A DNA stretch of 64,000 nt. Origin: an uncultured Candidatus Saccharibacteria bacterium. GTDB lineage: Bacteria > Patescibacteriota > Minisyncoccia > 2-02-FULL-40-12. Under the pieces are notes generated by a model. It ran no database searches. It had not been told where the DNA came from and saw nothing but the letters and a program-made list of their open reading frames with translations. The translations under genes were made by a program, and so were the position numbers. Each line of letters starts with the position of its first letter. Positions within the stretch are counted from its first letter, which is position 1. The DNA lies in NCBI GenBank assembly GCA_964368135.1, contig CAYIZI010000001.1:42926-106925 (forward strand). The letters run 5' to 3'. Below are positions 2,567 through 63,062 of this stretch, piece after piece.

Positions 2567-4033
2567 TTATTCTTCTGGTAATTCTTCTTTCTGAACCTTG
2601 GGCCTCTGTTTCTCCAACCACTCTTTCACCATCATCGTGGCCCGCGCGTCATCTTCATTGTATTTGATGAGCTTATTTAAAAATTCTTTCTTCTGCGTCT
2701 GAAGCCATTGGTCATACCACAAAACCGCTTCTCCCCCGCCCGCGCCTTCATCCTGCCACTTATAACCGGCATAACCAGCCACATCTTTTAAACTATAAAA
2801 ATACAACGGCAGAACTACTGAACCGGTTGTAATGTAATACAAATCTAAACTATTTTCCCTGAATTTCCTCATTAAGTCTGATTGAGGGCCATATCTTTTT
2901 TCCAACCGATTTAAAACATGCTTCTCATAATATCCGTAATGGTAGAGAACAAAATTTTCCTGCTTCTCTAAAAATTTTAAAAAATCTTGCCAGATTTTTT
3001 CCTCGTCTTTTTTGTTTTTAGCCAAATAGTATTCAAAGCTTGGAGTTTTTCGGTCAGCTTTTTTAATTAATAATCCAAAGAGAAAATCTGTCCCCTGGGT
3101 TGGATCGCTTTCAACATCAAAATAAATTTCGGTTTCTGCTTCCGGAAAATTATATTTTTGGATAATTAGGGGTTGGTCTGAAACCAGGACTTGGGCCTGA
3201 TTATGGAGCCGGACCAACTTATCAAAATTCCAGCTCGAGAGACTGTCGCGCAACCAAGACAAATCTGCTTCGGCCATGTCTTTCAATGTTTTTATACCTA
3301 TTTCATAAAGCTCTTTTTGGTCTCTCTGGCTGATTCCGTGAATTAAAGAAACATCATCACAGCCTCTGGAATCTTGCTCGCAAATTGAAAACCAGGGGCT
3401 TCTTTTGCAGCCACCTTTCAAAAAAGGCACTGGTTTTTCACCATTCAGAACTTTTTCTATTTCCTGCAAAGTAAAATTAAATCTATCCAAAAAAGGCTCA
3501 ATTAAAAAAGATCTGGTTTCACCGTCAGCATTTATGATTACTGCTTCGGCCGGCCGGATGCCCTGGATGTTTTCCAGAATCAAACTGGCGAATACCAAAG
3601 GGAATTTATATTCATCCCGAAGCTCTGGGTCGTTTCTGATATCGTAAGCTACATAGTACCAATCACCGAAATTACTCTTGCGGACTTTCTCGCCAAAGTC
3701 TTTAAGTTCGCTAATCGGCCGGGCTTCAATAAAATCAGGCTCGCCGACCCAGTGATGATGCATTAAAACTGGTTTATAAATATTTTTACCCTGTTTCATC
3801 AGTTCAACTGTGGCTAAAAATGCCTCATCAAGATCATTATAAAGTTCTGGCTTTATTTCCACGAATTCTTTTTGAGACAAGACTTTGTGCGGCTCGCGGA
3901 TGCGGCCAGAATAAAGCATCTCCAAAACCGGCGGAATATGTTTATGCTTTTTCTGGTCTTCGTAAATGTCATACCAAATCCAATGAGGGCAAAGGAAAAA
4001 TTTATAGAAGTGTTCGGATTTTATTTTTTGCAT
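2567..4033 (-). CDS. RecB-family PD-(D/E)xK nuclease with a C-terminal RNase H-like (DnaQ-like) domain, TM0106-like
   Basis: 488-aa protein carrying YFDVESDP and HYGYYEK motifs typical of the RNase H-like exonuclease fold, plus an N-terminal Cys/His-containing nuclease-like region. The family assignment is from memory of TIGR03491-type proteins. Confidence 0.5.
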   Translation of the reverse strand: MQKIKSEHFYKFFLCPHWIWYDIYEDQKKHKHIPPVLEMLYSGRIREPHKVLSQKEFVEIKPELYNDLDEAFLATVELMKQGKNIYKPVLMHHHWVGEPDFIEARPISELKDFGEKVRKSNFGDWYYVAYDIRNDPELRDEYKFPLVFASLILENIQGIRPAEAVIINADGETRSFLIEPFLDRFNFTLQEIEKVLNGEKPVPFLKGGCKRSPWFSICEQDSRGCDDVSLIHGISQRDQKELYEIGIKTLKDMAEADLSWLRDSLSSWNFDKLVRLHNQAQVLVSDQPLIIQKYNFPEAETEIYFDVESDPTQGTDFLFGLLIKKADRKTPSFEYYLAKNKKDEEKIWQDFLKFLEKQENFVLYHYGYYEKHVLNRLEKRYGPQSDLMRKFRENSLDLYYITTGSVVLPLYFYSLKDVAGYAGYKWQDEGAGGGEAVLWYDQWLQTQKKEFLNKLIKYNEDDARATMMVKEWLEKQRPKVQKEELPEE

Positions 4034-5289
4034 TATCTAAAAATTGCTTTTAAAAAAATTCTGGTCACGTAAACGGCGCTGAAGATGCTGAAAATTGTGC
4101 CGATGGCCAAGGTTAAGGCAAAACCTTTGACCAGTGAGGCGGCAAAAATGTAAAGAATAACTGCGGCAATCAATGTGGTAATCTGCGAGTCGCGGATTGA
4201 AGACCAGGCCCGGTTAAAACCAATATCAATCGCCGCGGCCCTGTTTTTTCCATCTTTTAATTCTTCTTTAATCCTTGAAAAAATCAAAATGTTGCCGTCC
4301 ACGGCCATACCCAAAGACAAAATGAACCCGGCTATGCCAGATAGAGTCAGGGTCACCGGGATAAGTTTAAAAACAGCAAGAACCAAAACAGTATAAAAAG
4401 CCAGAGCAAAAACTGAAACCAGACCAAAACCGCGGTAAAAAATAATCATAAACAAAACCAAGGCCAATAAACCGTAAACTCCGGCCTGCAAACTTTTTTC
4501 CAAATATTCCCTCCCCAGAGTCGGCCCAATTGTCTGCTGGGAAATAAGACCTATCGGTACCGGCAAAGCTCCAGCTGAAAGCCGCTGAGCCAAGTTTCTA
4601 GCCTCATTAATGGTAAACCGCCCGCTAATTACGGCTTGGCCATTAGCTATCTCATCTTGAACTATGGGAGCGCTGATCGGCTGGCCATCAAGAAAAATAG
4701 CCAGGGGTTTGCCTAAATTTCTTTTTGTAATTTCAGAAAGCAATCTTGTTCCCTCGTCATTAAACTCTAAACTTACCAGCGGCAAATTTGTATTTGGGTC
4801 AAAAGCAAGAAAGGCTCGCTTTAATTGCTTACCGGTTAAGCCGGTTGAAACAAAGCCAGATGCCTCGGCCACAACCTCGCCTTCAGCTTCAATTTCCGGC
4901 AGTTCAATATTAACTAATTCTCTAAACTCCAAAAAAGGCGTTTCCCCTATCAGTTTAATCGCTTCGGCAGTATCTTTGACTTGAGGTAATTCAACAATCA
5001 ATCTATTCTCGCCGCTCACCTGAATATTTGGCTCAGCGACGCCAAAAATATTAACCCGCCTTTCGATAACGTCTCTAACCCCTGCCATTGAATCTTCTCT
5101 ATCGCCCGGCGGCACCGCGGTTAAATCAGCCTCATAAACTAAATGGGCCCCGCCAAGCAAATCAAGGCCTAATCGAAACGGTTTTTCCGGAATTTTTATG
5201 TTTAAAGAAACAAGCCACCCACTGGCCAGTTGCGGATAAACAAAAAAAGCCAGGAGAACTAAAACTATTGTTAAAATTAAAACCTTCAT
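4033..5289 (-). CDS. secD: Protein translocase subunit SecD
   Basis: N-terminal TM helix, the LGLDLLGGAHLVYEAD periplasmic-domain signature and a C-terminal 6-TM bundle. No secF is adjacent. Confidence 0.85.
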   Translation of the reverse strand: MKVLILTIVLVLLAFFVYPQLASGWLVSLNIKIPEKPFRLGLDLLGGAHLVYEADLTAVPPGDREDSMAGVRDVIERRVNIFGVAEPNIQVSGENRLIVELPQVKDTAEAIKLIGETPFLEFRELVNIELPEIEAEGEVVAEASGFVSTGLTGKQLKRAFLAFDPNTNLPLVSLEFNDEGTRLLSEITKRNLGKPLAIFLDGQPISAPIVQDEIANGQAVISGRFTINEARNLAQRLSAGALPVPIGLISQQTIGPTLGREYLEKSLQAGVYGLLALVLFMIIFYRGFGLVSVFALAFYTVLVLAVFKLIPVTLTLSGIAGFILSLGMAVDGNILIFSRIKEELKDGKNRAAAIDIGFNRAWSSIRDSQITTLIAAVILYIFAASLVKGFALTLAIGTIFSIFSAVYVTRIFLKAIFR

Positions 5290-6164
5290 AAATTCAGAAA
5301 TACTTTCACTTTTTTTTCTACGACTTCTTGCATTTTTTCAACCGCTTCTTCTAAGAACTTGTAAGGCGTTGTTTCAGCCGGAGCTTCTTTTAACTTCTCG
5401 TCTAATCCTTTACGATAAGCCACTCTGACTTCGGTGTTTATATGAATATTAATGACGCCGTTTTCAATAGCTTTTTTAAAATCTTTATCGTCCAAACCAG
5501 AACCGCCGTGTAAGACAAGAAAAGTTTGGGGCACGGCCTCGTTTATTTTTCTAAGCAAAGAGAAATCTAATTTTTCTTCTTGTTTGGTGACTACGCCGTG
5601 AATATTGCCGAAAACCACGGCTAATCGGTCAACCCCGGTTTTTTCAACGAACTCCTTAGCTTCCTCGGGTTTAGTAAAATCTTCTGATTTTATCGCAATT
5701 GTTTCCTGAAGTTTTGACTCCCCTTTTAAATAACCCAACTCGCCCTCAACGGTAATTCGTCCATTTTTGGATTTGGCATAATCTCTAACCCGGTGTGCCA
5801 CTTTTATATTTTCTTCAAATGGCAAAGATGAGGAATCAATCAGTACGGTGTCATAACCAGCGTCCAGGGCCTCTTTGCAGGATTCAAAGCTTTTATGGTG
5901 GTCAGCGTTTAAAAAAATAGCTAAGTTAGTGTCTGACTTCCAAGCATCAACCAATTTTCTGGCTTCTTTATAGCCCAAAAACTTCGCCTCGCCCTCGCTT
6001 GTACCGACCATTAAAGCATACTGATCGTAGGGTAAATTATAAAAATCCAAGACCTTCTTAAATCCCAAAACAATGGCCTTCAATTGTTCCGCCGACGCAA
6101 AATTAAAATGCGGGACAGCAAAATGTTTTTCCTTGGCAATTTTTAAATAATCATTTAAATTCAT
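5286..6164 (-). CDS. fba: Class II fructose-bisphosphate aldolase family protein
   Basis: KHFAVPHFNF ... LVLHGGSGL ... INIHINTE motifs of class II FBA/tagatose-bisphosphate aldolases. Confidence 0.8.
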   Translation of the reverse strand: MNLNDYLKIAKEKHFAVPHFNFASAEQLKAIVLGFKKVLDFYNLPYDQYALMVGTSEGEAKFLGYKEARKLVDAWKSDTNLAIFLNADHHKSFESCKEALDAGYDTVLIDSSSLPFEENIKVAHRVRDYAKSKNGRITVEGELGYLKGESKLQETIAIKSEDFTKPEEAKEFVEKTGVDRLAVVFGNIHGVVTKQEEKLDFSLLRKINEAVPQTFLVLHGGSGLDDKDFKKAIENGVINIHINTEVRVAYRKGLDEKLKEAPAETTPYKFLEEAVEKMQEVVEKKVKVFLNL

Positions 6165-53269: not shown

Positions 53270-53731
53270 TTATGGAAAATTTCCTATCTCTTCCCAAGAT
53301 TCAACTTCTATTTTGCCAAATGGTTTTGAAACAATTATTTCAAGATTAGTATAGGAACTTTTATTGCCGTCTTGAGGGTATTTGCCTTGAACTTGGATTG
53401 TCTTAGTCCCAGAGCCGGATATTGAATAAATAATACATGAATCATCACCAACCGGAATAGTTTCGCCAGGCGGCGAAAGCGAGTAATCATTAAATTCGTC
53501 ATCATTTAGCGCCTGTAATTTTAAAATCGCGGTGTCGGCGCAGGCCTCGGCCAAGCCAATGCTTTTTTCCTTAAACTCTGAATCAAGAACATTTATCCTG
53601 GCGAAAAAACTGCGAAAGCCCAAAGCAAAAGTAATAGTCATCAAAATAATGGCAATAATGACCGTAGAAATCAAAGCAATATAGCCGTTTTTATTTCCGG
53701 ATAAATTTGGTGGTCTCATAATAAAAATCAT
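53270..53731 (-). CDS. Minor pilin-like protein with a non-canonical leader (PilX-like)
   Basis: Hydrophobic N-terminal helix NGYIALISTVIIAIILMTI, but no Glu at +5. Confidence 0.45.
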   Translation of the reverse strand: MIFIMRPPNLSGNKNGYIALISTVIIAIILMTITFALGFRSFFARINVLDSEFKEKSIGLAEACADTAILKLQALNDDEFNDYSLSPPGETIPVGDDSCIIYSISGSGTKTIQVQGKYPQDGNKSSYTNLEIIVSKPFGKIEVESWEEIGNFP

Positions 53732-54209
53732 TTAAGTAAAAGTTGGTCTTGACTGCTGGGGGCTGGCCAGTGGCTGAAGGAGGAATATACTCAAAGCTCA
53801 AAGTGGCGGCTTTTACGCTATCGCTGTCTAAGGCCAAAAAAACTCCTATCCCTGGATCAATCTCAATATTTTCGTTAACCAATCTAAATTTGACTCGTTG
53901 GGATAAACCATATTTATCAACTGACAGTTCATCCCCTTCTGGCGGGATAATTATTGGAGTTGGGTTTGATAAATCTATTCCAGTCAACGCCCAATTTATT
54001 TTCCGCAAAACAAAGTTGGCCTCGTCGCTGATTAAAACCTTAATGTTGGAACGGTCGGTTGCTTCAATAACTGAATAAACCGAAACAATCACTCCGGCCA
54101 TTAATAGAGAAAAAAGAGCTATATATATTAGCACTTCAATAATGGTAAATCCATTTTCGTGACTAAATTTAGACATCAGAAAATCAATTGCAAACTGGTG
54201 ATGGTTCAA
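53691..54209 (-). CDS. Minor pilin/pseudopilin (prepilin-type N-terminal cleavage/methylation domain)
   Basis: HENG-FTIIEVLIYIALFSLL. Confidence 0.7.
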   Translation of the reverse strand: MNHHQFAIDFLMSKFSHENGFTIIEVLIYIALFSLLMAGVIVSVYSVIEATDRSNIKVLISDEANFVLRKINWALTGIDLSNPTPIIIPPEGDELSVDKYGLSQRVKFRLVNENIEIDPGIGVFLALDSDSVKAATLSFEYIPPSATGQPPAVKTNFYLNDFYYETTKFIRK

Positions 54210-55785
54210 TAATCCGCAGTTTGCTTTGTTGGTTAGTTACTGTGTAGATAACGTCGTTCTCATAAGCAAAGTTTTGCGGGTCTACTGAAAAGTTATAGGG
54301 ACAGGTATCCCATCTCTCAATATTGGCCGGATCACTTACATCTAAAACAAGAAAGGGGTCGTTGGGATCTCTTGTTGTAACAAAAGCTAACTGTCCTGAA
54401 ACTTTAATGCCGGTAATGCCCGCACCCTGGTTATAATTAAAAAAATCATTAAAGTTTACTGACCCAGGAGCAGAAGATAAGTCGTTAGTATCAACAACGT
54501 AAAAATCTCGGTCATTCCCTGGATTTGAACGTCCTATTCCAAGATAAATTTTATTTCCAATAACATATAAATCTCTCCCGTCTTTTGAACTTGCCGAACC
54601 GTCGGCTCTTTCCGCATCAAAGGTACCGGCAATAGTTATATTTAAAGGATTGGCTATATTAAGAACGATAATTTCCTCGTTATTAGAAGAAGTGGCAAGA
54701 TAGGCCCTATCCTCTCTTACTTCAATATCATTGATATTATGATCTACTTGGGTAGAGCCTGTATTCCCAAGGTGAACGGGGTTTGTTGGATCAGTTACAT
54801 CAAAAATGTGAAACTCCGAACCGCCAACTCTATGGGTACCTATATAAATGCGGTTATTGTAATAAGCAATGCTTCGTCCGCCGGGACAAGTAAAATTACA
54901 AGTTCCACTTACTCCGGGTAAAGACACAGAAGCAATTTGAATAGGCGCCGCGGGGTCAGTCACATCAATTACCTGGAGTTGGCCGCTGGCTTTTTCATTG
55001 CCGCTGCCACTGCCGTCATCCGGATCGTAAAAATCTCCGTGGATACTGGCCGCAAAAATATAACGTTTATTTAACGATTGAAAATCAACGGCCACTAAAT
55101 CAACAATCCCGTTTAGTTTTTTACCTGGTCCCCAATCCACCCCGATACTCCCTAAAAAAACTGGGTTTGAAGTATTAGCCGCATCATAAATAAATAGGTC
55201 ATCTAAATTTTCATTAGAATCATAGACCCCTAAGTAAACAATCTTATTCAGGACGGCAATACTTTCACCGTTAACAGTATTTATAATAATATTGTCGTGA
55301 TTGGTTACGGGATTCCTCCAATTATCATTTGACGGAGATATTATGGAACAATTACTGCCAGCATCAATAAAAGCTTTTAGACTGCCGATAATACTAGAAA
55401 TACTTATTGATTGAGGCCTGTTTTCCACATCCCAATCAATAGTACTTTTAATTTCTTTGACACAGGGAGAGATATCTAATACTTCTAAAGTTTTAGTGTA
55501 AATGTCAGTCGTAGTCGGAGTTGTAGAAATAATGGAGTTAAATTCTCCGACTGTACCACGAGATTGAGCTCGAGTATTCTCAAGTTCCTCTTGAGCAAAA
55601 TACAAAGCTTCCTGATTTGTCTCGGTGTCTATTTCGGTTGACTGACCGCCAAACAAAACCATTATCACCGCGGAAATCGTCAAAACGAAAATAAACATCG
55701 CAATCATAATTTCCATTGTGGTCAGACCGCTTTCTAACCCGCTCTGGCGCTTAAGTTTCTTAGTAATTGATCCGGCCTTGTTCAT
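54184..55785 (-). CDS. Prepilin-leader protein fused to an LVIVD-repeat beta-propeller domain, candidate pilus tip adhesin
   Basis: N-terminal SG-LTTMEIMIAMFIF (Glu at +5). The C-terminal ~430 aa carry repeated LQVIDVTDPAAP / FHIFDVTDPTNP / FLVLDVSDPAN / IIVLNIANPLN LVIVD-type repeats. Confidence 0.7.
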   Translation of the reverse strand: MNKAGSITKKLKRQSGLESGLTTMEIMIAMFIFVLTISAVIMVLFGGQSTEIDTETNQEALYFAQEELENTRAQSRGTVGEFNSIISTTPTTTDIYTKTLEVLDISPCVKEIKSTIDWDVENRPQSISISSIIGSLKAFIDAGSNCSIISPSNDNWRNPVTNHDNIIINTVNGESIAVLNKIVYLGVYDSNENLDDLFIYDAANTSNPVFLGSIGVDWGPGKKLNGIVDLVAVDFQSLNKRYIFAASIHGDFYDPDDGSGSGNEKASGQLQVIDVTDPAAPIQIASVSLPGVSGTCNFTCPGGRSIAYYNNRIYIGTHRVGGSEFHIFDVTDPTNPVHLGNTGSTQVDHNINDIEVREDRAYLATSSNNEEIIVLNIANPLNITIAGTFDAERADGSASSKDGRDLYVIGNKIYLGIGRSNPGNDRDFYVVDTNDLSSAPGSVNFNDFFNYNQGAGITGIKVSGQLAFVTTRDPNDPFLVLDVSDPANIERWDTCPYNFSVDPQNFAYENDVIYTVTNQQSKLRIIEPSPVCN

Positions 55786-56233
55786 TGATGGTTATGGTTA
55801 AGGGAGGTTTACCCACGCTAATCAGAGTAATCTCAAGCGGCGCCGCCGCTACATTCCCAGTCAGCTGCTCAAAATTTATAATCCCGGACCAGGCTATCCC
55901 TAATCTTTCTATCGGGATACTTTCATTGCTTGGATCATTTGGAACGTAAACTGAACCTTCAAAAATTACAAGCTCTTTTTTAGCGTCATCATAATAAACG
56001 CTGTAAGACGACTGATTAATATTGCTGACGGCCTGATTCCTGGCTTTCTGCAAAATACTTATCACTATATCTTTGTCGTAATTAAAAGAATAGGTTCGGT
56101 AAAAATCCATACTCAAAAAAAGGCCGATGCCCATTAGCAGAACCAAAATACCGATGGCAACCAGAATTTCAATAATAGAGAATCCGTTACTACGCCGGCC
56201 GGCTAAATTAAGGCGAGAGGTTCCTGGTAATTT
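55760..56233 (-). CDS. Pseudopilin (GspH/FimT-like)
   Basis: RRSNG-FSIIEILVAIGILVLL. Start taken at MKLPGT. Confidence 0.7.
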   Translation of the reverse strand, partial: KLPGTSRLNLAGRRSNGFSIIEILVAIGILVLLMGIGLFLSMDFYRTYSFNYDKDIVISILQKARNQAVSNINQSSYSVYYDDAKKELVIFEGSVYVPNDPSNESIPIERLGIAWSGIINFEQLTGNVAAAPLEITLISVGKPPLTITINEQGRINY

Positions 56234-57278
56234 CATAAATCGGGGTAATGATTGAAACAGCAATAAAGCCGACAATCAAACCCATAAACACCATCAAAGC
56301 CGGCTCAAGGATCGTAGATAAATTCTTAGTCAGTTCGTCCATCTCGGCCTCATACATTTCGGCCAGATAAAGTAAAGTTTCATCCAAGCGGCCGGTTGAT
56401 TCGCCGATTTCAATCAAATGAGTCAAAATATGCGGGAAAAGGTCTGGCCTTCTTTCCATCTGACTGACTATTTTTTCGCCCTTAACCACGCACTTTGAAA
56501 TCTTCACAAGTTCGTTTCGGTAGACCAGATTAGTGGTCGTCTGCGAGGCAATTAAAAAAGCATTAATCACTCTGATGTCGCTTTTGATCAAAATTCCAAG
56601 GGTCCGGCAAATATTGGCCAAGTGATAATTCTTGAATATCGGACCAATCAAAGGCATTTTAAAGCTGGCCAGGTGCAGAAGATAGCGAAACTTATCCGAA
56701 GTCCTAAAAAAAACAATTAAACCAACCGCCAAAACAATAATCCCGGCAACTAAAAACAACCCATAGGCCTTCAAAAAATCAACGCTGGCAATCAGGGCCC
56801 GGGTAGTAAGGGGCAGGTTCACATTCAAACTGGCGAAAATCGGCAAAATCTTCGGGAAAATATAAAGAGTTAAAAGGCCGGCCAAACCTAAAGTAGCAAT
56901 AATTATAAAAATCGGATAAACCAGCGCGCCCATCACTTTACGCTGCAGGGCCTGCTTTTTCTTCATCTCATCGGCCAAATAGTTCAGGTTCTCGTCCAGA
57001 GTACCGCTCTCTTCGCCGACCCGAATCAAATTAATGGCCAGCTGGTCAAAGTTATGCCGAAACTTAGCCAAACTGCTTGAAAGATACTGACCGTTGGAAA
57101 CGTCTTTAATCACCTGGTCAAGAACCAATGACTTGGCGCCCGATGGACTTTGTTTTCTTAAAATATTTAAACTCTGGAGCAAGGGCACGCCGGCCTTAAC
57201 CAAAAAAGACAGCCGCTTGGCAAAAAGGGTTTTCTCTTTTACGGAAATTCTGGTAAATAACTCTCTTAATCTACTCAT
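56208..57278 (-). CDS. pilC: Type IV pilus assembly platform protein PilC (GspF family)
   Basis: Two GspF repeats and the conserved ...LVYPIFIIIATLGLAG and ...MVFMGLIVGFIAVSII helices. Confidence 0.85.
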   Translation of the reverse strand: MSRLRELFTRISVKEKTLFAKRLSFLVKAGVPLLQSLNILRKQSPSGAKSLVLDQVIKDVSNGQYLSSSLAKFRHNFDQLAINLIRVGEESGTLDENLNYLADEMKKKQALQRKVMGALVYPIFIIIATLGLAGLLTLYIFPKILPIFASLNVNLPLTTRALIASVDFLKAYGLFLVAGIIVLAVGLIVFFRTSDKFRYLLHLASFKMPLIGPIFKNYHLANICRTLGILIKSDIRVINAFLIASQTTTNLVYRNELVKISKCVVKGEKIVSQMERRPDLFPHILTHLIEIGESTGRLDETLLYLAEMYEAEMDELTKNLSTILEPALMVFMGLIVGFIAVSIITPIYEITRNLSP

Positions 57279-58503
57279 TGATCACTCTCAAAACTTCCTC
57301 CAGAGTGGTAATGCCTTCTTTGGCTTTCCTGATGCCGTCCTCAACTATAGTGGTCATCCCATTGCCGGAAGCGATTAACTTAATCTCATTGGCCGAAGCC
57401 CTCCTTAAAAAAGCTTCTCTGACCATATTGTCTACAACCATCACTTCAAATATGCCGACTCGGCCCTGAAAACCGGTCTCGCCGCATTTCTCACAGCCCC
57501 TGCCGTAATAAAACTGCCAGTTGGAATCTGAACCCAAAACCGAATTCTGGAAAAAATTTTCCAAGCTCTTCTTTTCGGCGTCGGTCAGCTTTCTTAAAGT
57601 TTTGCATTTGGGGCAAATTTTCCTGACCAATCTCTGGGCAATGGCCAAGTTGACCGTTGAAGCAACCAGGTACGGCTCAACTTTCATATCTAATAATCTG
57701 GGCAAAGTGGTGGCCGCGTCATTGGTATGCAAAGTGGACAAAAGCAGGTGGCCGGTTAAAGCGGTGTTGACAGCTAAGGCCGCGGTCTCAACATCTCTGA
57801 TTTCGCCAACCATTATTATATCGGGGTCCTGCCGTAAAATTGACCTTAGTCCGTTGGCAAAGTTTAAGCCGACCCGGGAATTAACCTGAATCTGTTCAAT
57901 TCCTTCAACCGCGTATTCAATCGGGTCCTCCACCGTGACAATTGAAACATCTTTGTTGTTTAAAAATTTTAAAACGGTGTAAAGAGTGGTGGTTTTGCCA
58001 GATCCGGTCGGTCCGGTGGCTAAAATCATGCCGTGACTTTTTTTGGCGGCCCTCAAAACCTTTTCCTTGTCTGACGGACTAAAGCCAAGTTTATCCAAAG
58101 TGTATTCTTCTTCCTTATCTGATAAAAGACGCAAAACCGCGTTCTCGCCGTAATAGGTTGGAGCTACGGAAACGCGAATATCAATCGGCGCCTGCCCGTC
58201 AAAAGCAATACTGAACCGGCCGTCTTGAGCAGTCTGGTGTTCGTCAGTCCTTAAGTTTGATAAAATTTTAATTCTGGAAACCACCTCTGATTTGATTTCT
58301 CTTGGAAAAGTAAAAAAATCCTGCAAAACGCCGTCAATTCTAAACCTGATTCTGACTCCCTTTGTGCCCGGGTCAATATGAATATCCGAAGCCCGCGAGT
58401 TGTGGGCGTATTCTATTAAGTTGTCCACCAGGCTGATTAAGGAAATCTGTTCAGAGTTTTGCTCAATTTCCCGCTCAATTTTATTTCTTAGTTCTGTTGA
58501 CAT
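57271..58503 (-). CDS. pilB: Type IV pilus assembly ATPase PilB (GspE family), short form
   Basis: Walker A GPTGSGKTTT, Asp box, His box and the tetracysteine CPKC...CEKC motif that distinguishes PilB/GspE from PilT. Confidence 0.85.
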   Translation of the reverse strand: MSTELRNKIEREIEQNSEQISLISLVDNLIEYAHNSRASDIHIDPGTKGVRIRFRIDGVLQDFFTFPREIKSEVVSRIKILSNLRTDEHQTAQDGRFSIAFDGQAPIDIRVSVAPTYYGENAVLRLLSDKEEEYTLDKLGFSPSDKEKVLRAAKKSHGMILATGPTGSGKTTTLYTVLKFLNNKDVSIVTVEDPIEYAVEGIEQIQVNSRVGLNFANGLRSILRQDPDIIMVGEIRDVETAALAVNTALTGHLLLSTLHTNDAATTLPRLLDMKVEPYLVASTVNLAIAQRLVRKICPKCKTLRKLTDAEKKSLENFFQNSVLGSDSNWQFYYGRGCEKCGETGFQGRVGIFEVMVVDNMVREAFLRRASANEIKLIASGNGMTTIVEDGIRKAKEGITTLEEVLRVINE

Positions 58504-58583
58504 TAGAGAAAAATTAATCTTAATCGTATAATCTTATATCTTTCCTTTGAATATAGTCAACAAAAAAAGCCCAAAGAGCCATG

Positions 58584-58613
58584 GAACATAATAAATTCAG
58601 AAAAGGTGCGGGG
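58584..58613. repeat. 30-bp perfect direct repeat, copy 1 (GAACATAATAAATTCAGAAAAGGTGCGGGG)
   Basis: Identical to 59430-59459. On the minus strand it encodes the last 6 codons of dedA (YTPHLF-stop) followed by ATGTTC. Confidence 0.7.
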
Positions 58614-59181
58614 TGTATAGGCCAATAAACGCAGCCAGGGTGTTAAAAACGATATTGCCTAAAGTCATCGGAATCATCAGCCGCCAGTAAGGATAGTGAA
58701 TAAAACCAAGGGGCATGACCACCAAATCATCAGGCAGAGGGATAAAAGCGCCGTAGCTGAAAATGGCCAGACTGGCCAGCCACTTGGGATGAGACAAAGA
58801 CCATTCATAAGCCCGGTCAATGGTTTTTTGAATTCTTGAAGGGATAATTTCCCGGCCATGATATGCAATAACATAAGAAGTTGAATCACCCAAGAAAAGG
58901 CCGATGCCGGCCACAAAACCCAAAAGAAATGGGTTTAACCCGCCGGCGGCAAAAGTCATCACAAAGAGATAATAAGGAATCGGAACAAAGGTTGAGATGC
59001 CGCCCAAGAAAGCCAAAACAAAGGTAATCAAATAGCCGTTTCGGACGCCCAGAATCTCAATAATGTCAGCCGGCGGAATCCGGTAAATAAAAACTGTCCA
59101 GGCGACAAAAAGAGCAATCAGGATTAAAAAAGGAAATTGGGCTTTACTAACTATCCCCCGCACCTTTTCTGAATAGGTCAA
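58597..59181 (-). CDS. dedA: DedA-family (VTT/SNARE-associated domain) membrane protein
   Basis: FLGGISTFVPIPYYLFVMTFAAGG...GDSTSYVIAYHG matches the DedA core. Confidence 0.7.
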   Translation of the reverse strand: MTYSEKVRGIVSKAQFPFLILIALFVAWTVFIYRIPPADIIEILGVRNGYLITFVLAFLGGISTFVPIPYYLFVMTFAAGGLNPFLLGFVAGIGLFLGDSTSYVIAYHGREIIPSRIQKTIDRAYEWSLSHPKWLASLAIFSYGAFIPLPDDLVVMPLGFIHYPYWRLMIPMTLGNIVFNTLAAFIGLYTPHLF

Positions 59182-59435
59182 GACGACAAACTGCCGAGTA
59201 TTCTTCTCTTAAGCTGAGAATATACTTTACCGAACTGTTTCAGTTTTTTCTCACGGTTTCTGACGTCTTGACCGTTTAGATAACCTTCACAATAAACTAA
59301 CTTCCAAGGAATGAAAGCTTTAGTCGACCGATTATATCCTAAATTATGTTCTCTTATCCTTTTTAAAATATTAGTTGTTATGCCAATATATAATTTCTTG
59401 TTTTTATCGCTTTTCAATAAATAGACATAGAACAT
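59178..59435 (-). CDS. Stand-alone GIY-YIG nuclease family protein (~85 aa)
   Basis: MFYVYLLKSDKNKKLYIGITTNILKRIREHN...KLKQFGKV gives the GIY-YIG core. The ORF-track N-terminal 110 aa overlap the upstream gene in another frame and are rejected. Confidence 0.7.
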   Translation of the reverse strand: MFYVYLLKSDKNKKLYIGITTNILKRIREHNLGYNRSTKAFIPWKLVYCEGYLNGQDVRNREKKLKQFGKVYSQLKRRILGSLSS

Positions 59436-59459
59436 AATAAATTCAGAAAAGGTGCGGGG
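59430..59459. repeat. 30-bp perfect direct repeat, copy 2
   Basis: On the minus strand it holds the ATG and the 21 nt upstream of the GIY-YIG gene. Confidence 0.7.
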
Positions 59460-59463
59460 TTCA

Positions 59464-60501
59464 CTATTTGTTTTGATTCTTGAAAGACGGATAGCGGTCT
59501 GGGTCAATGGTTCGGCTGAAGCAAGTTCTTTCAGCGTCATGGAGCCAGCTTTCTTCAGTAATGCCAGGGTAAGGATAATAAAGCTCGCGGGGGGCCAAAG
59601 GCACTGGTTTTGCTCCGCTCTTTTCCGGCTCCTGCTTGTTTGAGGTCTTAAAAGTGGCGCAAAGCTCAAACTGCAAAGTACCGCGAACTCGGTATTCATA
59701 CGAGTCCCCTGTTTCCGGGTCAGCCGGCGGGATGAAGCCACGGATATCGTCGCGAAGCTGATCAAGATTTTGAGGCAATGTTTCTTTGGCCTGCCAAAAG
59801 TTTATAATTTCATTCTGAATCGCCTGTAGATCCGAAATTCTCCGCTCATCAAATCTCTTCAAGCGCTGGGCAATTGGCGAACCGGCCGTAACAAAGCCGA
59901 TGACGATGAAAAAAATGCCAGCCAGGGAAACCAACCAAACGAACCATCTCATTTTCGGGTCTTTAGCGGCCGGAACTTTCCGCCGGATATTCCACAAGTA
60001 ATAGGTAAACACCGCTAAAGCAATAACCAGAACGGTCAAAATCTTAAGCACAAATTGAGTGGTTAAATCTCCATTAAGATAGCGATAAATAAGAGCGATT
60101 AAATCAGCGACAATAATGATGGCGGCAACAAAAAGCGTAAAATGCAAAAGCCATTTCCTGACTTTTAATTCTTTTTTCTCGGGATTCCGTTCAAGGTCTT
60201 TCTGAAGATAGGAGTTATACCAAAGATACAAAGGGAAAACCACGATCAGGGTAGCCAAAGGCCATCTGATGGCCTGGCGGTTATAAAAATCGTAGCTTAA
60301 AACATCGGGGAAATATATATCAATCAAACCGAAAATTAAAACACCAAAAGAAATTACCAGGACATAAAGGCCGATAATGACCAAGAGTTGGCCAAACACG
60401 TCTTTGCTCGTCGAAGGTTCCGCCCCCGACGTAAGTCGGGGTTGCGGAATCGCTGTCGGCCCGGTTTTTGCAGAATCAGTCATTGTTTTAAATTCTACCA
60501 A
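59464..60501 (-). CDS. Hypothetical integral membrane protein (5-6 TM helices, C-terminal soluble domain; DUF5671-like)
   Basis: The true start is uncertain. The annotated N-terminal ~30 aa overlap the 60408-60456 motif, and a GTG just downstream (MFGQLLVIIG...) would start at the first TM helix. Confidence 0.45.
   Translation of the reverse strand: MVEFKTMTDSAKTGPTAIPQPRLTSGAEPSTSKDVFGQLLVIIGLYVLVISFGVLIFGLIDIYFPDVLSYDFYNRQAIRWPLATLIVVFPLYLWYNSYLQKDLERNPEKKELKVRKWLLHFTLFVAAIIIVADLIALIYRYLNGDLTTQFVLKILTVLVIALAVFTYYLWNIRRKVPAAKDPKMRWFVWLVSLAGIFFIVIGFVTAGSPIAQRLKRFDERRISDLQAIQNEIINFWQAKETLPQNLDQLRDDIRGFIPPADPETGDSYEYRVRGTLQFELCATFKTSNKQEPEKSGAKPVPLAPRELYYPYPGITEESWLHDAERTCFSRTIDPDRYPSFKNQNK
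60408..60456 (+). other. Conserved ~50-nt hairpin-containing motif, copy 2
   Basis: TCGTCGAAGGTTCCGCC - CCCGAC-GTAA-GTCGGGG - TTGCGGAATCGCTGT. The flanks are identical to copy 1 at 954-1003, and the central hairpin differs but is self-complementary. Confidence 0.4.
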
Positions 60502-60522
60502 ACTTATCTAATTTTTACAAAT

Positions 60523-61005
60523 TTATTTCTTTAACTTATCATAATTTTTCCTAAACTCTTCCAGTACTTCTTGGGCGTGGATTTCCGGCTTCACCTTTTC
60601 GTAAATTTTGGCGATTTTGCCTTTAGGGTCAATTAAAAAAGAAGTGCGCAAGGTTCCGTAATACTCGCGGCCCATCATTTTTTTCTTAGCCCAAACACCG
60701 TATTTTTTAAGTACTTCTTCCCCTTCGTCAGCTAAAATCGTGAAGGGCAAGCTGTATTTTTCGGAAAATTTTTTGTGGCTTTTAACCGAATCCGCGCTCA
60801 GGCCTAAAACCTTGACCTTTATTTTTTTGAAATCCGGAAAGTTGTCGCGGATGGCGCAGGCCTCTTTGGTGCAGCCAGGCGTATCGTCTTTAGGATAAAA
60901 ATACAAAAGCACCCACTGACCCCGATAATCGGAAAGTTTGTGAATTTTACTATCTTGGTCCGGCAAATTGAAATCCGGCGCAACTTGCCCTATTTTCAGC
61001 TTCAT
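60523..61005 (-). CDS. bcp: Thioredoxin-dependent thiol peroxidase (Bcp/PrxQ peroxiredoxin)
   Basis: [19 protein letters not shown] with the peroxidatic and resolving Cys. Confidence 0.85.
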
Positions 61006-61029
61006 ATAAAAATTCTATCATAATATCAT

Positions 61030-61647
61030 ATGAATCCAAAAACTATTAGATACTTTATAATAGGATTTGCCTATCTGGCGGTGGCTTATCCTTTATGGGT
61101 GAGATTTAGAAGTTTAACCTGGGTTTTTGATTTTGATTTGCTGCTGTCCAATCTCTTTCCGATGTTCGGGCTGGCCGCTTTTGCAATTTTATGGCTTCAT
61201 GTTGTAAGCGGCGTGTTTGAACCGTGGCTAAGAGAAAATTTTGACTTTGACCGCTTCGTCAACAACACCTCGTTTCTGCTTTTTATTTTTATAATCCTCC
61301 ACCCGCTTTTACTGCTGATCAGTTTGAATTTCAGTTTCAGCAATTTGTTTCTGGCTTACGGCGTTCGCTCCGTTTGGCTTGGCATTATCGCCTGGCTTTT
61401 GCTTATCACCTATGACATTGGCAAGGCCTTTAAAAAACGGGGCTTCTTTAGCTCAAATTGGAATAATATTTTAATCATAAGCACAGTTGGAATTATATTG
61501 ATATTTTTCCACTCTTTAGATTTAGGAAGCGATTTGCAGTCAGGACACTTGAGAGTTATTTGGCTTTTTTACGGCCTGACCGCCATCATTGCCGCGATTT
61601 ATGTTTATGGAATAAAAAGATTTTTGATCTCCTCTCATAAAATTTGA
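61030..61647 (+). CDS. Hypothetical integral membrane protein (6 TM helices, His residues within the helices)
   Basis: 205-aa hydrophobic ORF, divergent from bcp. No family assigned. Confidence 0.5.
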   Translation: MNPKTIRYFIIGFAYLAVAYPLWVRFRSLTWVFDFDLLLSNLFPMFGLAAFAILWLHVVSGVFEPWLRENFDFDRFVNNTSFLLFIFIILHPLLLLISLNFSFSNLFLAYGVRSVWLGIIAWLLLITYDIGKAFKKRGFFSSNWNNILIISTVGIILIFFHSLDLGSDLQSGHLRVIWLFYGLTAIIAAIYVYGIKRFLISSHKI

Positions 61648-61712
61648 TTTCCCATTTTTACTCAACAATCCGGAAAATCTCTGGATTTAGAGTATTAACA
61701 ACAAGGACTCAT

Positions 61713-61868
61713 TTATATCCCAAGAAATCTCAGCAACTCGTAAACAAGAAAAGCTGGCCAGAGAATCGCTTTTAGCAGACCTAAAACTATCGCCCCAAAG
61801 CCATCAGCTTGGGACAAATAGTATATCGCCGCGCCAATGAAGCCTAATCCGTAGACAGGACTTTTCAT
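61713..61868 (-). CDS. Possible unannotated 51-aa small membrane protein
   Basis: Manually read minus-strand ORF MKSPVYGLGFIGAAIYYLSQADGFGAIVLGLLKAILWPAFLVYELLRFLGI, with two predicted TM helices. Confidence 0.25.
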   Translation of the reverse strand: MKSPVYGLGFIGAAIYYLSQADGFGAIVLGLLKAILWPAFLVYELLRFLGI

Positions 61869-62245
61869 AGCTGCACTATCTTTGTGAAAAAAGCCAATCC
61901 ATCAACCGCTTGCGGTGCTTCTCAATTGACCAATCTTCAGATTTTTTGAAAAGCGAAGAGTGGGTAATCTGAAATTCTTTCAAGGCTTTGCTTGTTGCTT
62001 GCGGAAAATCTTCGGGAATACTCTTATTATAATTTTCAATAAAAACACCTAAAGATGTAGTAATTTGATTTTGCTCAAATTCGTTGCTCTTAGATCTCAT
62101 CAGTTTAAGATAGCATAAATCACTCGAAAATGAAAGAGATAACTTACTTATTAGATAAGGCGCGAGCTTCTTGAAAAAAAATGCAAAAAGACTATAGTAT
62201 TTTCAATTAGGTCGATTCAGGTTTATTAAAGAAAACCCAACAAAT

Positions 62246-62449
62246 ATGAGCAAATTCTCAATGACCTGTTCCTGCGGCCACACAATGGCGGTTGAAGCAG
62301 CCAGCCAGGCCGAAGCAGTCAAAAAGCTTAAAGGCATGATGAATAAAGCAGCGGTTAAAGCTCACCTGGCTGAAAAACACGCTGGCCAGCCAATGATGAC
62401 CGTGGCAGACGTTCACGCCGCAATTGAAAAGACCACTGTTCTCGTCTAA
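62246..62449 (+). CDS. Small putative metal-binding protein (CSCGH motif), GC-richer than background
   Basis: 67 aa with a Cys-x-Cys-Gly-His motif and an Ala/Lys-rich helix. Followed by a clean terminator. Confidence 0.4.
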   Translation: MSKFSMTCSCGHTMAVEAASQAEAVKKLKGMMNKAAVKAHLAEKHAGQPMMTVADVHAAIEKTTVLV

Positions 62450-62467
62450 GTTTTTATCAGCATAAAT

Positions 62468-62497
62468 AAAACCGCTTAAAAATTAAAAGCGGTTTTA
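62468..62497. terminator. Intrinsic terminator AAACCGCTT-AAAAATTAA-AAGCGGTTT with flanking A/T runs
   Basis: Read directly, 20 nt after the stop of the 62246-62449 gene. Confidence 0.6.
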
Positions 62498-62573
62498 TTT
62501 ATGCTCCGACTGTTGGATGCGTTTAGAATGGAGTTATGGACTAGGAGTCGGGGTTGGACTGGGGCTTCCTATT

Positions 62574-63062
62574 TTATGGTTTCACCTCGCCTGGTTCGGT
62601 TGCATCCTTGGTCACTATAAAAATCGTCATCACCGATTCGCCGCTGATAGAATCCTTTGCGGGGTAGTCTTCCCCGGCCTCAAATACTTTGTCTCCGTCA
62701 TCGAGATGAATCATGGCGTAGAGCGTCTCACCATCCACGGTCATCCGGGAAAAAACGACCAAGACATCTTTTGTTTCGCCTTTAGAGAGTAAAGCGCTGG
62801 CGCCCAAAATTTTGCCGGGCCTGCCGTTTATATCTTCATGAATAACCACAAAACCAGGTCTCTCAAATTGGACAACCGCCACTGACACATTTTTGGCCGG
62901 TACCTGCTCCGCAACATAGATCGCATTTTTCGCGATAATAAGACCGGTGGAGTCTCCATTAAGGCGGCCGGGCTCGGGAGTTTCTCTAAGGAATAAAAAT
63001 GTTGCGCCGAGGCCAATAGCAATAAGAATAACAAGAATAAAGAAGGTTTTTGTATTCATCAT
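62574..63062 (-). CDS. Hypothetical N-terminally membrane-anchored secreted protein
   Basis: TM anchor KTFFILVILIAIGLGATFLF followed by a ~140-aa soluble domain. Start taken at MMNTK. Confidence 0.45.
   Translation of the reverse strand: MMNTKTFFILVILIAIGLGATFLFLRETPEPGRLNGDSTGLIIAKNAIYVAEQVPAKNVSVAVVQFERPGFVVIHEDINGRPGKILGASALLSKGETKDVLVVFSRMTVDGETLYAMIHLDDGDKVFEAGEDYPAKDSISGESVMTIFIVTKDATEPGEVKP

Follow-up and report, generated by a model that had tools for sequence, protein, structure and literature searches.

The biochemistry of small hairpin-flanked GIY-YIG genes dates only from 2025, when the Ssn enzymes were shown to be single-stranded-DNA nucleases that bind the hairpins flanking their own genes (Chenal et al., Nat Commun 2025, PMC11893778). 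The authors noted the insertion-sequence-like look of this architecture and left it as a hypothesis (PMC11893778). A literature search for prokaryotic GIY-YIG elements with inverted repeats, flank duplications or MITEs returned only that paper as relevant. In CPR bacteria, GIY-YIG ORFs have been described, according to excerpts of PMC11270868, within insertions of rRNA genes; these insertions fit no group I or group II intron, and their sites are scattered and poorly conserved.

The locus compared here lies in a 64-kb stretch of CPR DNA, referred to as the window, in which a direct repeat of 30 bp had been noticed around dedA and a GIY-YIG gene. Its closest known system is Ssn/SRM, the small single-stranded-DNA GIY-YIG nucleases with hairpin repeats, of which the CPR element is a new variant. 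The 30-bp repeat probably forms the left end of a very small mobile element, composed of inverted repeats and an 85-codon GIY-YIG gene and mobilised in an Ssn-like manner.

The repeat, the element and its nuclease

Exact matching confirmed the perfect direct repeats described in the earlier note: the 30-mer GAACATAATAAATTCAGAAAAGGTGCGGGG occurs in exactly two copies, at 58584-58613 and 59430-59459, spaced by 846 bp, and no additional match was found in the window with up to three mismatches allowed. Two matches were reached in 0 of 100 shuffles, which excludes chance. The similarity extends around the 30-mer over 42 nt, 39 of them identical (58573-58614 versus 59419-59460). Its 19-nt core, CCCCGCACCTTTTCTGAAT, is present three times in the window, twice in direct orientation and once inverted. 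The inverted copy, which separates the GIY-YIG gene from dedA at 59156-59174, was absent from the earlier note and changes the reading of the repeat: the actual unit is not the 846-bp segment but a 304-bp element bounded by inverted repeats. The features of the locus, listed in the order of transcription, are the following.

59464-60501, minus strand: upstream gene for a DUF5671 membrane protein (PF18920, E 7e-25)
59460-59464, minus strand: GTGAA, five bases left behind from the start of the ancestral dedA ORF, which overlap the DUF5671 stop (TAGTG)
59156-59459, minus strand: intact element of 304 bp (19-bp inverted repeat, 5 nt, GIY-YIG ORF, 3 nt, 19-bp inverted repeat)
59441-59459, minus strand: left (ORF-proximal) terminal inverted repeat, reading CCCCGCACCTTTTCTGAAT on the minus strand, inside the second copy of the 30-mer
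59178-59435, minus strand: single-domain GIY-YIG nuclease gene, 85 aa plus stop (Pfam PF01541, E 8.8e-15)
59156-59174, minus strand: right terminal inverted repeat, reading ATTCAGAAAAGGTGCGGGG on the minus strand and holding the GTG at which dedA now starts
58597-59163, minus strand: dedA, encoding a VTT-domain membrane protein, 188 aa when started at the right-repeat GTG (PF09335, E 5.3e-11)
58573-58613, minus strand: decayed second element (left repeat at 58595-58613, TTATT, ATGTTCcATGgCTcTTT), including the first copy of the 30-mer
58531-58560, minus strand: pilB promoter-like site (TTGACT-18-TAAGAT), adjoining the decayed element on its downstream side

The two arms of the intact element (59156-59174 and 59441-59459) are complementary at 19/19 positions. 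Single-strand folding of the elements includes the terminal stem, with z-scores of -4.8 to -9.2, and an Rfam search of 57500-61000 at E <= 1 gave no match. No target duplication was found at both ends of the window's intact copy, and an offset ATAG on either side of it is probably due to chance.

The reading frames agree with what had been proposed for both repeats. Copy 2 holds the leader and the ATG-TTC of the GIY-YIG gene (85-aa ORF, 59178-59435, minus strand), while copy 1 supplies the end of dedA (...T-P-H-L-F-stop) and is followed by a second ATG TTC that runs to a stop after 10 codons. The suggestion that copy 1 is the remnant of a second GIY-YIG copy was essentially right, as it consists of a left repeat, 5 nt and about six diverged codons. 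The sequence ATGTTCcATGgCTcTTT is the diverged start of a GIY-YIG ORF (39/42 over the 42-nt repeat), and tblastn found no GIY-YIG-like coding sequence after this left repeat. The decayed element is a 41-nt stump, 846 bp downstream of the intact copy on the coding strand.

The PF01541 match spans residues 1-67 of the 85-aa protein, and its AlphaFold model (pLDDT 94) has the GIY-YIG fold without an extra domain; no DNA-binding domain stands beside the GIY-YIG domain. The nearest folds among solved structures are UPF0213 BH0048 and Slx1, with I-TevI as fold match 9. Residues Y5, Y16, G18, R26, H30, R61, E62 and K66 are invariant across 42 homologues, and the catalytic GIY-YIG residues are conserved in the window protein. 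Pfam and NCBIfam scans of the element's ORF gave GIY-YIG only, and no DDE, DEDD, HUH, serine or tyrosine transposase. The protein aligns with Azospirillum WP_014249537.1 (38% identity, E 4e-15), whose gene has SRM hairpins of the published type on either side. An exact look-up of the protein gave no record, and neither additional GIY-YIG genes nor dedA paralogues were found in the window. In a public copy of the contig (L048, 99.99% identical), no gene is called in the 300-bp gap.

The host locus and its empty site

In a relative (L049) the site is empty: the DUF5671 gene is followed by 17 nt and an ATG-initiated dedA ending in ...GLYAPI and the stop, without repeats. Since DUF5671 there leads directly to dedA, the latter is resident, and the earlier alternative of a cassette insertion with duplication of its target is not supported. 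In-silico deletion of 59156-59459 from the window yields GTG AAG ATA GTT AGT AAA GCC, that is (M)KIVSKAQFPF, which matches MKVNRAQFPF of the empty-site relative, and removal of the 304 bp also restores the native operon junction TAGTG. The insertion has split dedA after its fifth base, and the element repeats now give its start codon, last codons and stop. The dedA protein call P0051 begins at the GTG within the right repeat, and the final five codons and stop fall in the left repeat of the decayed element; an alternative TTG start at 59181, with which the GIY-YIG gene shares a TTGA overlap, would give 194 aa. For annotation, the element accounts for odd gene starts and ends, as dedA both begins and ends in repeat sequence.

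According to the earlier note, orthologous dedA genes with the same ending and a repeat found nowhere else would speak for coincidental re-use of a leader. An 85%-identical DedA orthologue ends in ...GLYAPI, against ...GLYTPHLF in the window, and the repeat does exist elsewhere, which favours mobility.

One empty site was found (L049). The other close relative, L002, where DUF5671 seemed to lead directly to pilB, was rejected as a second one because a 10-N scaffold gap sits at exactly that place. To the right of this gap the sequence reads TATATCT-CCCCGCAttTT, like the window junction of the dedA end with the repeat. At the pilB promoter-like site, TTGACTAT is kept in L002 and L005.

A promoter scan placed a promoter-like site for the DUF5671 gene at 60520-60492, and read-through from this gene probably accounts for transcription of the GIY-YIG gene and dedA, which would then be co-transcribed. 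Two further readings of the repeat were discarded. A hybrid or outward promoter arising from it (TTGA+CC as -35, TATTAT as -10) would place the transcription start inside the ORF. A pilin-leader fragment on its plus strand (FRKGAG|F) is at odds with the flank of copy 2, which is the conserved 3' end of DUF5671; this reading is true of a solo repeat in L002, which encodes the leader of a pseudopilin.

Related elements, mobility and alternative explanations

Scans and homologue look-ups revealed the same repeat-GIY-YIG-repeat design in other CPR contigs (L013, L016, L027, L043, L050, L053, L056 and L057). The gene-bearing elements of relatives measure 293-307 bp and carry seven inner-repeat variants, all beginning with CCCCGCACCTTT and all still complementary. 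L013 and L016 have the same 19-mer as the window, in inverted pairs 302 bp apart around a 66-67%-identical GIY-YIG gene; in the other six, homologues of 59-64% identity lie inside perfect 19-bp repeats that have CCCCGCACCTTT in common but vary across the inner 7 nt. In eleven related gene-bearing elements the two repeats correspond perfectly or at 18/19 positions. Among nine elements compared, 99.4% of repeat positions pair and 5 pairs have changed on both sides (18 cells), values reached by 0 of 500 shuffles. The window's 19-mer bounds elements at unrelated sites in other genomes, and the earlier assignment of the GIY-YIG gene to a mobile element is supported.

Inverted pairs of the 19-mer also occur 40, 69, 136 or 144 bp apart with no gene inside. 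Copies of 136 bp recur with 99-100% identity at four different sites and stand in either orientation relative to their TTGA/TCAA flank. Gene-less and gene-bearing copies were found together in metagenome Ga0210057, a co-occurrence established at the level of the metagenome. A 19-mer scan of viral contigs gave no match.

TTGA stands on both sides in ten insertions. Nine of these ten sites are promoter-like, the TTGA falling on the -35 box, compared with 12% when every TTGA in those loci is counted (p = 4e-8), and insertion sites include those upstream of 16S rRNA, tmRNA, infA and secG. Other flank duplications in relatives are TAAA, AAA, CAGGG and CTGTGG, so that lengths range from 3 to 6 bp overall; a clean duplication is absent from the window copy and from the same-repeat copies in L013 and L016. 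The varied length and sequence of these duplications do not fit a single fixed staggered cut. That TTGA belongs to the element rather than to the target was considered and rejected: TTGA or TCAA flanks 99%-identical copies whatever their internal orientation, and other copies show different duplications.

In the Ssn-like mobilisation model, both copies would have inserted into a resident DUF5671-dedA-pilB region, the first landing behind base five of the dedA ORF, the second a few codons ahead of its stop, so that dedA would now be read from the element's GTG (or TTG) and stop in the decayed copy. The GIY-YIG nuclease would recognise the stem formed by the two repeats paired in single-stranded DNA and cut at its base, thereby mobilising 300-bp autonomous copies as well as gene-less copies of 40-144 bp that retain only the repeats. 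New copies would usually land on TTGA, typically in a promoter -35 box, leaving TTGA on both sides. Since GIY-YIG enzymes are hydrolytic nucleases, rejoining of the cut DNA would need a host ligase or repair copying, and the transposition chemistry proposed here is inferred; we know of no strand transfer by a GIY-YIG enzyme.

A bolder and more tentative proposal is that a transposable element of about 300 bp may be autonomous with the 85-residue single-domain nuclease as its sole protein, and would then form an enzymatically new class of insertion sequence. The ends of the element would pair as a 19-bp stem in single-stranded DNA, and the element and its 40-144-bp derivatives would prefer the TTGA of -35 boxes of highly expressed CPR genes. 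If the nuclease does drive movement, transposition would require no more than a 300-bp unit with an 85-aa hydrolytic nuclease, which would amount to a new class of mechanism; if autonomous, the element would be, to our knowledge, the smallest autonomous mobile element described in bacteria. Promoter-edge targeting, as at the rRNA, tmRNA, infA and secG upstream sites, would allow persistence in genomes with almost no spare DNA.

It is rather unlikely, though conceivable, that the host has domesticated an Ssn-like system and keeps the nuclease and paired repeats for its own use, for example cutting incoming or replicating single-stranded DNA that bears the repeat and so modulating transformation or recombination around pilus genes; the repeats would then mark loci and not move. 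Neisseria offers a parallel, as SsnA and the NTS modulate natural transformation there and the authors propose domestication (PMC11893778). Type IV pilus genes hold or adjoin several of the insertions, namely in the window (upstream of pilB), in L002/L005 (pilin leader) and in L050 (between two pilins after pilC), but this pilus association amounts to three loci. Embedding of the GIY-YIG gene in an operon, its TTGA overlap with the alternative TTG start of dedA, and the missing clean duplications in the window, L013 and L016 also fit a host function, whereas near-identical gene-less copies at four sites, in both orientations and with flank duplications, and the empty site in a relative argue for movement. 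The decayed copy and the disrupted dedA start resemble parasitic insertion, not design.

An action of the inverted repeats mainly in RNA appears improbable. Here the 19-bp stem, or a pairing of the middle copy with the one after dedA, would serve in the DUF5671-GIY-YIG-dedA transcript as a processing or stability signal or as a control on how the nuclease and dedA are translated. Folded as RNA, the element is closed by the 19-bp stem (z = -9.2), pairing is maintained through compensatory changes, and the GTG start of dedA lies inside the middle repeat; CPR rRNA genes moreover hold non-intron insertions bearing GIY-YIG genes beside IVS-like elements cut by RNase III, as excerpts of PMC11270868 relate. 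The same covariation is however explained by pairing in single-stranded DNA, the majority of gene-less copies are placed upstream of promoters, in positions not expected to be transcribed, the Rfam search gave no family, and Ssn enzymes do not act on RNA (PMC11893778).

Very improbable is a composite transposon, close to the cassette of the earlier note, in which two direct-orientation GIY-YIG elements captured dedA and carried it here as cargo. Direct-orientation element ends do bracket dedA, with its start and stop in element sequence, but DUF5671 and dedA are adjacent without an element in a relative, removal of 304 bp restores the TAGTG junction, and just a 41-nt stump of the second copy is left.

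That an inserted GIY-YIG (plus dedA) cassette duplicated its target site, or that a leader was re-used by chance, is hardly credible despite the direct orientation and the 30/30 identity, since the repeated sequence is the element's own conserved terminus, the same 19-mer bounding elements at unrelated sites in other genomes and forming inverted pairs around other GIY-YIG genes, since actual flank duplications measure 3-6 bp, and since the shuffles exclude chance. Of the interpretation first put forward, the mobile element and the second-copy remnant therefore stand, and the target-duplication cassette does not.

Comparison with known systems

Insertion sequences and MITEs, such as the Correia elements of Neisseria, share with the CPR elements terminal inverted repeats, gene-less miniatures, promoter-adjacent insertion and, for most relatives though not for the window copy or L013/L016, short direct flank duplications; presence/absence polymorphism (L049) and near-identical multiple copies are further features of this kind. 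Known insertion sequences measure from roughly 0.7 kb upward, far above the 0.3 kb of the present element, whose sole ORF belongs to no recognised transposase class, whose repeats are perfect over 19 bp and whose duplication length is not fixed.

The REP/REPIN sequences with their RAYT (TnpA-REP) and the IS200/IS605 elements likewise combine a small nuclease gene, set between inverted palindromic repeats, with short non-autonomous copies that form hairpins and are scattered in intergenic DNA, and they too have a short preferred target (TTGA here, TTAC or TTGAT there); recognition of a single-stranded hairpin is likely to be common to both. However, Pfam and NCBIfam scans identify a GIY-YIG protein and no HUH Y1 tyrosine transposase, so neither a covalent intermediate nor strand transfer is expected, and the repeats here are terminal, pair with each other and have flank duplications in most copies.

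GIY-YIG homing endonucleases (I-TevI, Seg proteins) have the same catalytic fold and selfish lifestyle, but the element's protein is without a DNA-binding extension, no Rfam intron is present, and the insertion sites are diverse, with inverted repeats and flank duplications in place of one conserved homing site. The GIY-YIG-bearing insertions of CPR rRNA genes resemble the present elements in their CPR hosts, non-intron GIY-YIG ORFs and scattered sites; the excerpts of PMC11270868 describe neither inverted repeats nor flank duplications, and the elements here are intergenic or at promoters, not within rRNA.

Likeness is greatest with Ssn/SRM. Each encodes a GIY-YIG protein of one domain and about 85-97 aa, and in both an inverted-repeat sequence lies on either side of the gene and is also found gene-free elsewhere. 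The window protein is 38% identical to the SRM-flanked Azospirillum homologue, and the 5' half of the SRM, GTCAT-CCCCGCG, resembles the usual flank and repeat here, GTCAA-CCCCGCA. The SRM consensus HGTCWYN(0-2)YYVSBRHN(0-5)WNVSBRGN(0-2)RNCYNB nevertheless gave no match at the window element or any related element, while its regular expression does find the Azospirillum SRMs. On each Ssn flank the hairpins are local and complete, their stems about 7 bp long, whereas the CPR element has one 19-nt half on each flank, pairing across the gene, which lies in the loop. Flank duplications, empty sites, promoter targeting and a gene-less series are not reported for Ssn, and CPR bacteria are not mentioned in PMC11893778. 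The CPR elements provide the genomic footprints of movement that were missing for small hairpin-flanked GIY-YIG genes, namely compensatory complementarity of the repeats, flank duplications, an empty site and near-identical gene-less copies.

Anatomy of the element in the window

The 30-mer GAACATAATAAATTCAGAAAAGGTGCGGGG occurs exactly at 58584-58613 and 59430-59459. The earlier note had described two perfect direct repeats and the reading frames of both copies correctly; its suggested search for further copies, run on the 64-kb window with up to three mismatches, returned only these two, and none of 100 shuffles contained two matches. The similarity extends beyond the 30-mer to 42 nt (39/42 identical; 58573-58614 versus 59419-59460). 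This is a genuine feature, and more than an ordinary repeat. Its 19-nt core, CCCCGCACCTTTTCTGAAT, is present in a third, inverted copy at 59156-59174, overlooked in the earlier note and located 3 nt past the GIY-YIG stop codon, so that perfect 19-bp inverted repeats bound the GIY-YIG ORF at both ends.

Features of the locus, genes in order of transcription
59464-60501, minus strand: DUF5671 membrane protein gene
59178-59435, minus strand: GIY-YIG protein gene, 85 aa
58597-59181, minus strand: VTT/DedA protein gene (dedA)
Downstream of dedA, minus strand: PilB, PilC and pseudopilin genes, in this order
59156-59459, minus strand: intact element, 304 bp (repeat, TTATT, ATG...TGA, CCT, repeat)

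The copy at 58584-58613 is a second left repeat (the side of the ORF start), followed by TTATT and ATGTTCcATGgCTcTTT, the opening codons of a GIY-YIG ORF with three changes. No GIY-YIG-like similarity was found past ATGTTCcATGgCTcTTT in this decayed copy, which stops just short of a weak hairpin and the promoter-like site of pilB (TTGACT-18-TAAGAT).

The 85-aa protein matches the Pfam GIY-YIG family (E 8.8e-15), has no second domain, and carries residues Y5, Y16, G18, R26, H30, R61, E62 and K66, invariant among 42 homologues. Its AlphaFold model is confident (pLDDT 94); among solved structures its fold comes closest to UPF0213 BH0048 and the structure-specific nuclease Slx1, and next to the catalytic domains of I-TevI and UvrC.

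Related elements and their insertion sites

Scans for the exact 19-mer matched 4 genome and 22 metagenome stretches. About eight of them have high-GC or unrelated surroundings and are apparently chance matches, close to the number expected; the remaining ones are CPR/Patescibacteria contigs.

Inverted pairs of the 19-mer, by distance
302 bp: L013, L016; GIY-YIG gene inside, 66-67% identical
144 bp: L004, L015, L017, L025; a single locus, upstream of infA
136 bp: L011, L012, two in L021
69 bp: L019
40 bp: L026; decayed versions in L006, L008

The 40-bp mini elements consist of the same stem as the gene-bearing elements, without the gene. A repeat variant, TCCCGCACCTTTTTAGGAT (18/19), is found in L012/L014. 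In L013, a second GIY-YIG gene (978-1226, 46% identical), with its own 18-bp inverted repeat CTCCCACACCTTTTAAGT and CAGGG on both flanks, directly adjoins the first and is followed by a solo CTCCCACACC, which places two repeat 'dialects' in tandem.

Contigs of more distant homologues (59-64% identity) were also inspected for repeats. In L027, L043, L050, L053, L056 and L057, the GIY-YIG gene lies between perfect 19-bp inverted repeats with a common start, CCCCGCACCTTT, and seven variable inner bases (AGAGCAC, TGTGCAC, TTAGGAT, TCACAAT, TGGTCAC and TCACGAT, respectively). Homologues at 51% (P0037) and 47% (P0044) identity are without these inverted repeats. Complementarity of the ends is maintained: across nine aligned elements, 99.4% of 162 repeat cells are paired, with five pairs changed on both sides (18 cells). 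In 500 shuffles, neither the pairing nor the covariation score of the real alignment was attained; in slid registers pairing fell to 37-58%.

A full-library search returned 5203 cluster representatives at E <= 1e-3, 376 of them at E <= 1e-10. Called termini translate the repeat (C-terminus KVRG or KGAG, N-terminus PAPF or PHLF) in 8 of the 150 best, which suggests that many more such elements exist. P0084, P0088, P0094 and about 30 other representatives of 200-340 aa have the GIY-YIG domain at residues 1-80; these may be gene calls that continue past the right repeat into the following gene, in the manner of the window's 194-aa dedA ORF, or real fusions.

Ten distinct elements, three gene-bearing (L027, L043, L056) and seven gene-less, are flanked on both sides by TTGA (TCAA on the other strand). 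Four 136-bp copies, 99-100% identical, have TTGA or TCAA flanks for one internal orientation; the flanks therefore come from the target, and TTGA as a part of the element is ruled out. Elements other than these ten have TAAA, AAA, CAGGG or CTGTGG as flank duplications. Nine of these ten elements have, on one side, a TTGA that opens a hexamer (e.g. TTGACA, TTGACT, TTGAAA) with a TATAAT-like hexamer 15-18 nt on, an arrangement found at only 12% of all 1154 TTGA sites of the same loci (binomial p = 4e-8). Genes downstream of such promoter-like insertion sites include infA (L004), secG (L043), tmRNA (L012) and 16S rRNA (L021). In L021, the two 136-bp gene-less copies (2578-2713 and 5805-5940, same orientation) bracket a 16S rRNA gene (2954-4698) together with a LAGLIDADG-type ORF (5070-5498); of these copies, the upstream one is on the promoter-like site TTGACA-16-TAAAAT.

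Two Pacebacteria contigs, L054 and L055 1100-1830 (JAHZTK010000519, JAGOQP010000003), carry a 47%-identical GIY-YIG gene without CCCCGCACC repeats. At its 3' end this gene overlaps tRNA-Glu(ttc) (1746-1820), and it is preceded by a copy of the 5' half of that tRNA. In L055, two GIY-YIG genes stand in tandem, with a tRNA 5' half before each. The arrangement seems to represent another mode of insertion, with a tRNA as its target. At L001 4867-4885 and L010 10133-10151 (Patescibacteria bin, same aquifer), a solo 19-mer directly adjoins the stop codon of a GAPDH-like gene. The last codons of that gene may be element-derived, since the bases before the 19-mer (CTTGTCTAA) resemble the 3' ends of GIY-YIG ORFs (CTTGACTAA).

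Effects on dedA and proximity to pilus genes

The Hainich H51 groundwater metagenome includes a public 9.8-kb contig, L048, that matches window 53597-63047 at 99.99% identity. Its gene table has no gene call within the 300-bp interval holding the GIY-YIG ORF (3584-3885), and the protein collection searched has no record of the 85-aa protein; elements of this kind may be under-annotated.

The comparison with relatives proposed in the earlier note was provided by L049, an 830-bp contig from the same site, whose DedA is 85% identical to that of the window. Here the DUF5671 stop is followed by 17 nt and ATG AAA GTT AAT CGG GCC CAA (MKVNRAQFPF...), dedA ends in ...GLYAPI* rather than the window's TPHLF, and no repeat lies on either side of dedA. 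L049 shows the locus in its uninterrupted state. In-silico deletion of 59156-59459 yields ...AAA TAG TGA AGA TAG..., in which the DUF5671 stop TAG overlaps GTG AAG ATA GTT AGT AAA GCC, or (M)KIVSKAQFPF; the intact element accordingly interrupts the ancestral dedA ORF behind base five. No flank duplication is seen at this element. The start codon of dedA is now a GTG within the right repeat (MRGIVSK..., the start called for P0051) or a TTG overlapping the GIY-YIG stop, and the gene's last five codons and stop (TPHLF*) are supplied by the left repeat of the decayed copy.

A close relative, L002/L005 (PilB 88% identical), was rejected as an empty site because of a 10-N scaffold gap between DUF5671 and pilB; to the right of this gap, the contig is similar to the window's dedA-end/repeat junction. 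Gene content around the locus varies further: between a 74-aa gene (61876-62100) and DUF5671, the window has genes for a peroxiredoxin (60523-61005) and for a 205-aa membrane protein (61030-61647), and in L002 (1-260) DUF5671 directly follows the 74-aa gene.

In L002 (3723-3741) and L005 (2402-2420), a solo 19-mer lies in the 5' end of a pseudopilin gene after pilC, where it encodes the leader ...FRKGAG|FSIIE and has a (TTTTCAA)x4 tandem repeat beside it; in the window, the orthologue (55760-56275, minus strand) has another leader, ...RRSNG|FSIIE. A remnant of the repeat was apparently co-opted to code for the prepilin leader. Further independent insertions in or beside type IV pilus or pilin genes are window 58503-59459, upstream of pilB, L050 1020-2486, between two pilins after pilC, and L043 2511-3294, two genes from a T4SS-pilin gene. 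This association may be due to chance, given so few loci; it is notable because Ssn/NTS, small single-stranded-DNA GIY-YIG nucleases and their hairpin repeats, affects natural transformation in Neisseria (PMC11893778).

Possible mechanism and comparison with Ssn nucleases

We consider it probable that the window element belongs to a family of GIY-YIG elements bounded by inverted repeats and mobile now or until recently. The nuclease is proposed to recognise the stem of the two paired ends in single-stranded DNA; as single strands, the elements fold with that stem (z-scores -4.8 to -9.2). The nuclease would cut at the stem base, and copies would then be reinserted with a preference for TTGA. 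That the 85-aa nuclease alone is the transposase is rather doubtful. GIY-YIG enzymes hydrolyse DNA and are not known to carry out strand transfer. The duplication length ranges from 0 to 6 bp across elements, which is inconsistent with one fixed staggered cut. The main rivals are that the nuclease has been domesticated for an Ssn-like role in the host, and that the stem acts mainly at the RNA level. L049, and the fact that the repeat recurs as the end of other elements, contradict two further readings: a composite transposon with dedA as cargo, and the repeat as a target duplication left by a cassette insertion. The observation of the earlier note stood; its interpretation was partly supported.

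The Ssn family was defined by Chenal et al. 2025 as single-domain GIY-YIG proteins of ~94 aa, which bind single-stranded DNA at a hairpin repeat (NTS/SRM), cut beside the hairpin, and are inactive on double-stranded DNA or RNA (PMC11893778). Their genes have NTS/SRM repeats on both flanks, an arrangement that the authors likened to an insertion sequence, and they proposed domestication; no flank duplications were reported and CPR bacteria were not mentioned (PMC11893778). A tblastn search of plasmids identified an Azospirillum lipoferum gene 38% identical to the window protein (pairwise E 4e-15), with doublets of CGTCATCCCCGCGAAGGCGGGGATCCAG on both flanks that match the published SRM consensus; this homologue indicates that the window protein is related to SRM-associated nucleases. 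The repeats of the window element and related elements do not match that consensus, with a partial likeness between SRM GTCAT-CCCCGCG and the usual flank plus repeat here, GTCAA-CCCCGCA. An SRM-associated gene has complete local hairpins on either flank, whereas the CPR elements have one 19-nt arm per side and the arms pair across the gene. The element is a variant of a recently described kind; its signs of mobility are unusually clear, and its target preference is unexpected.
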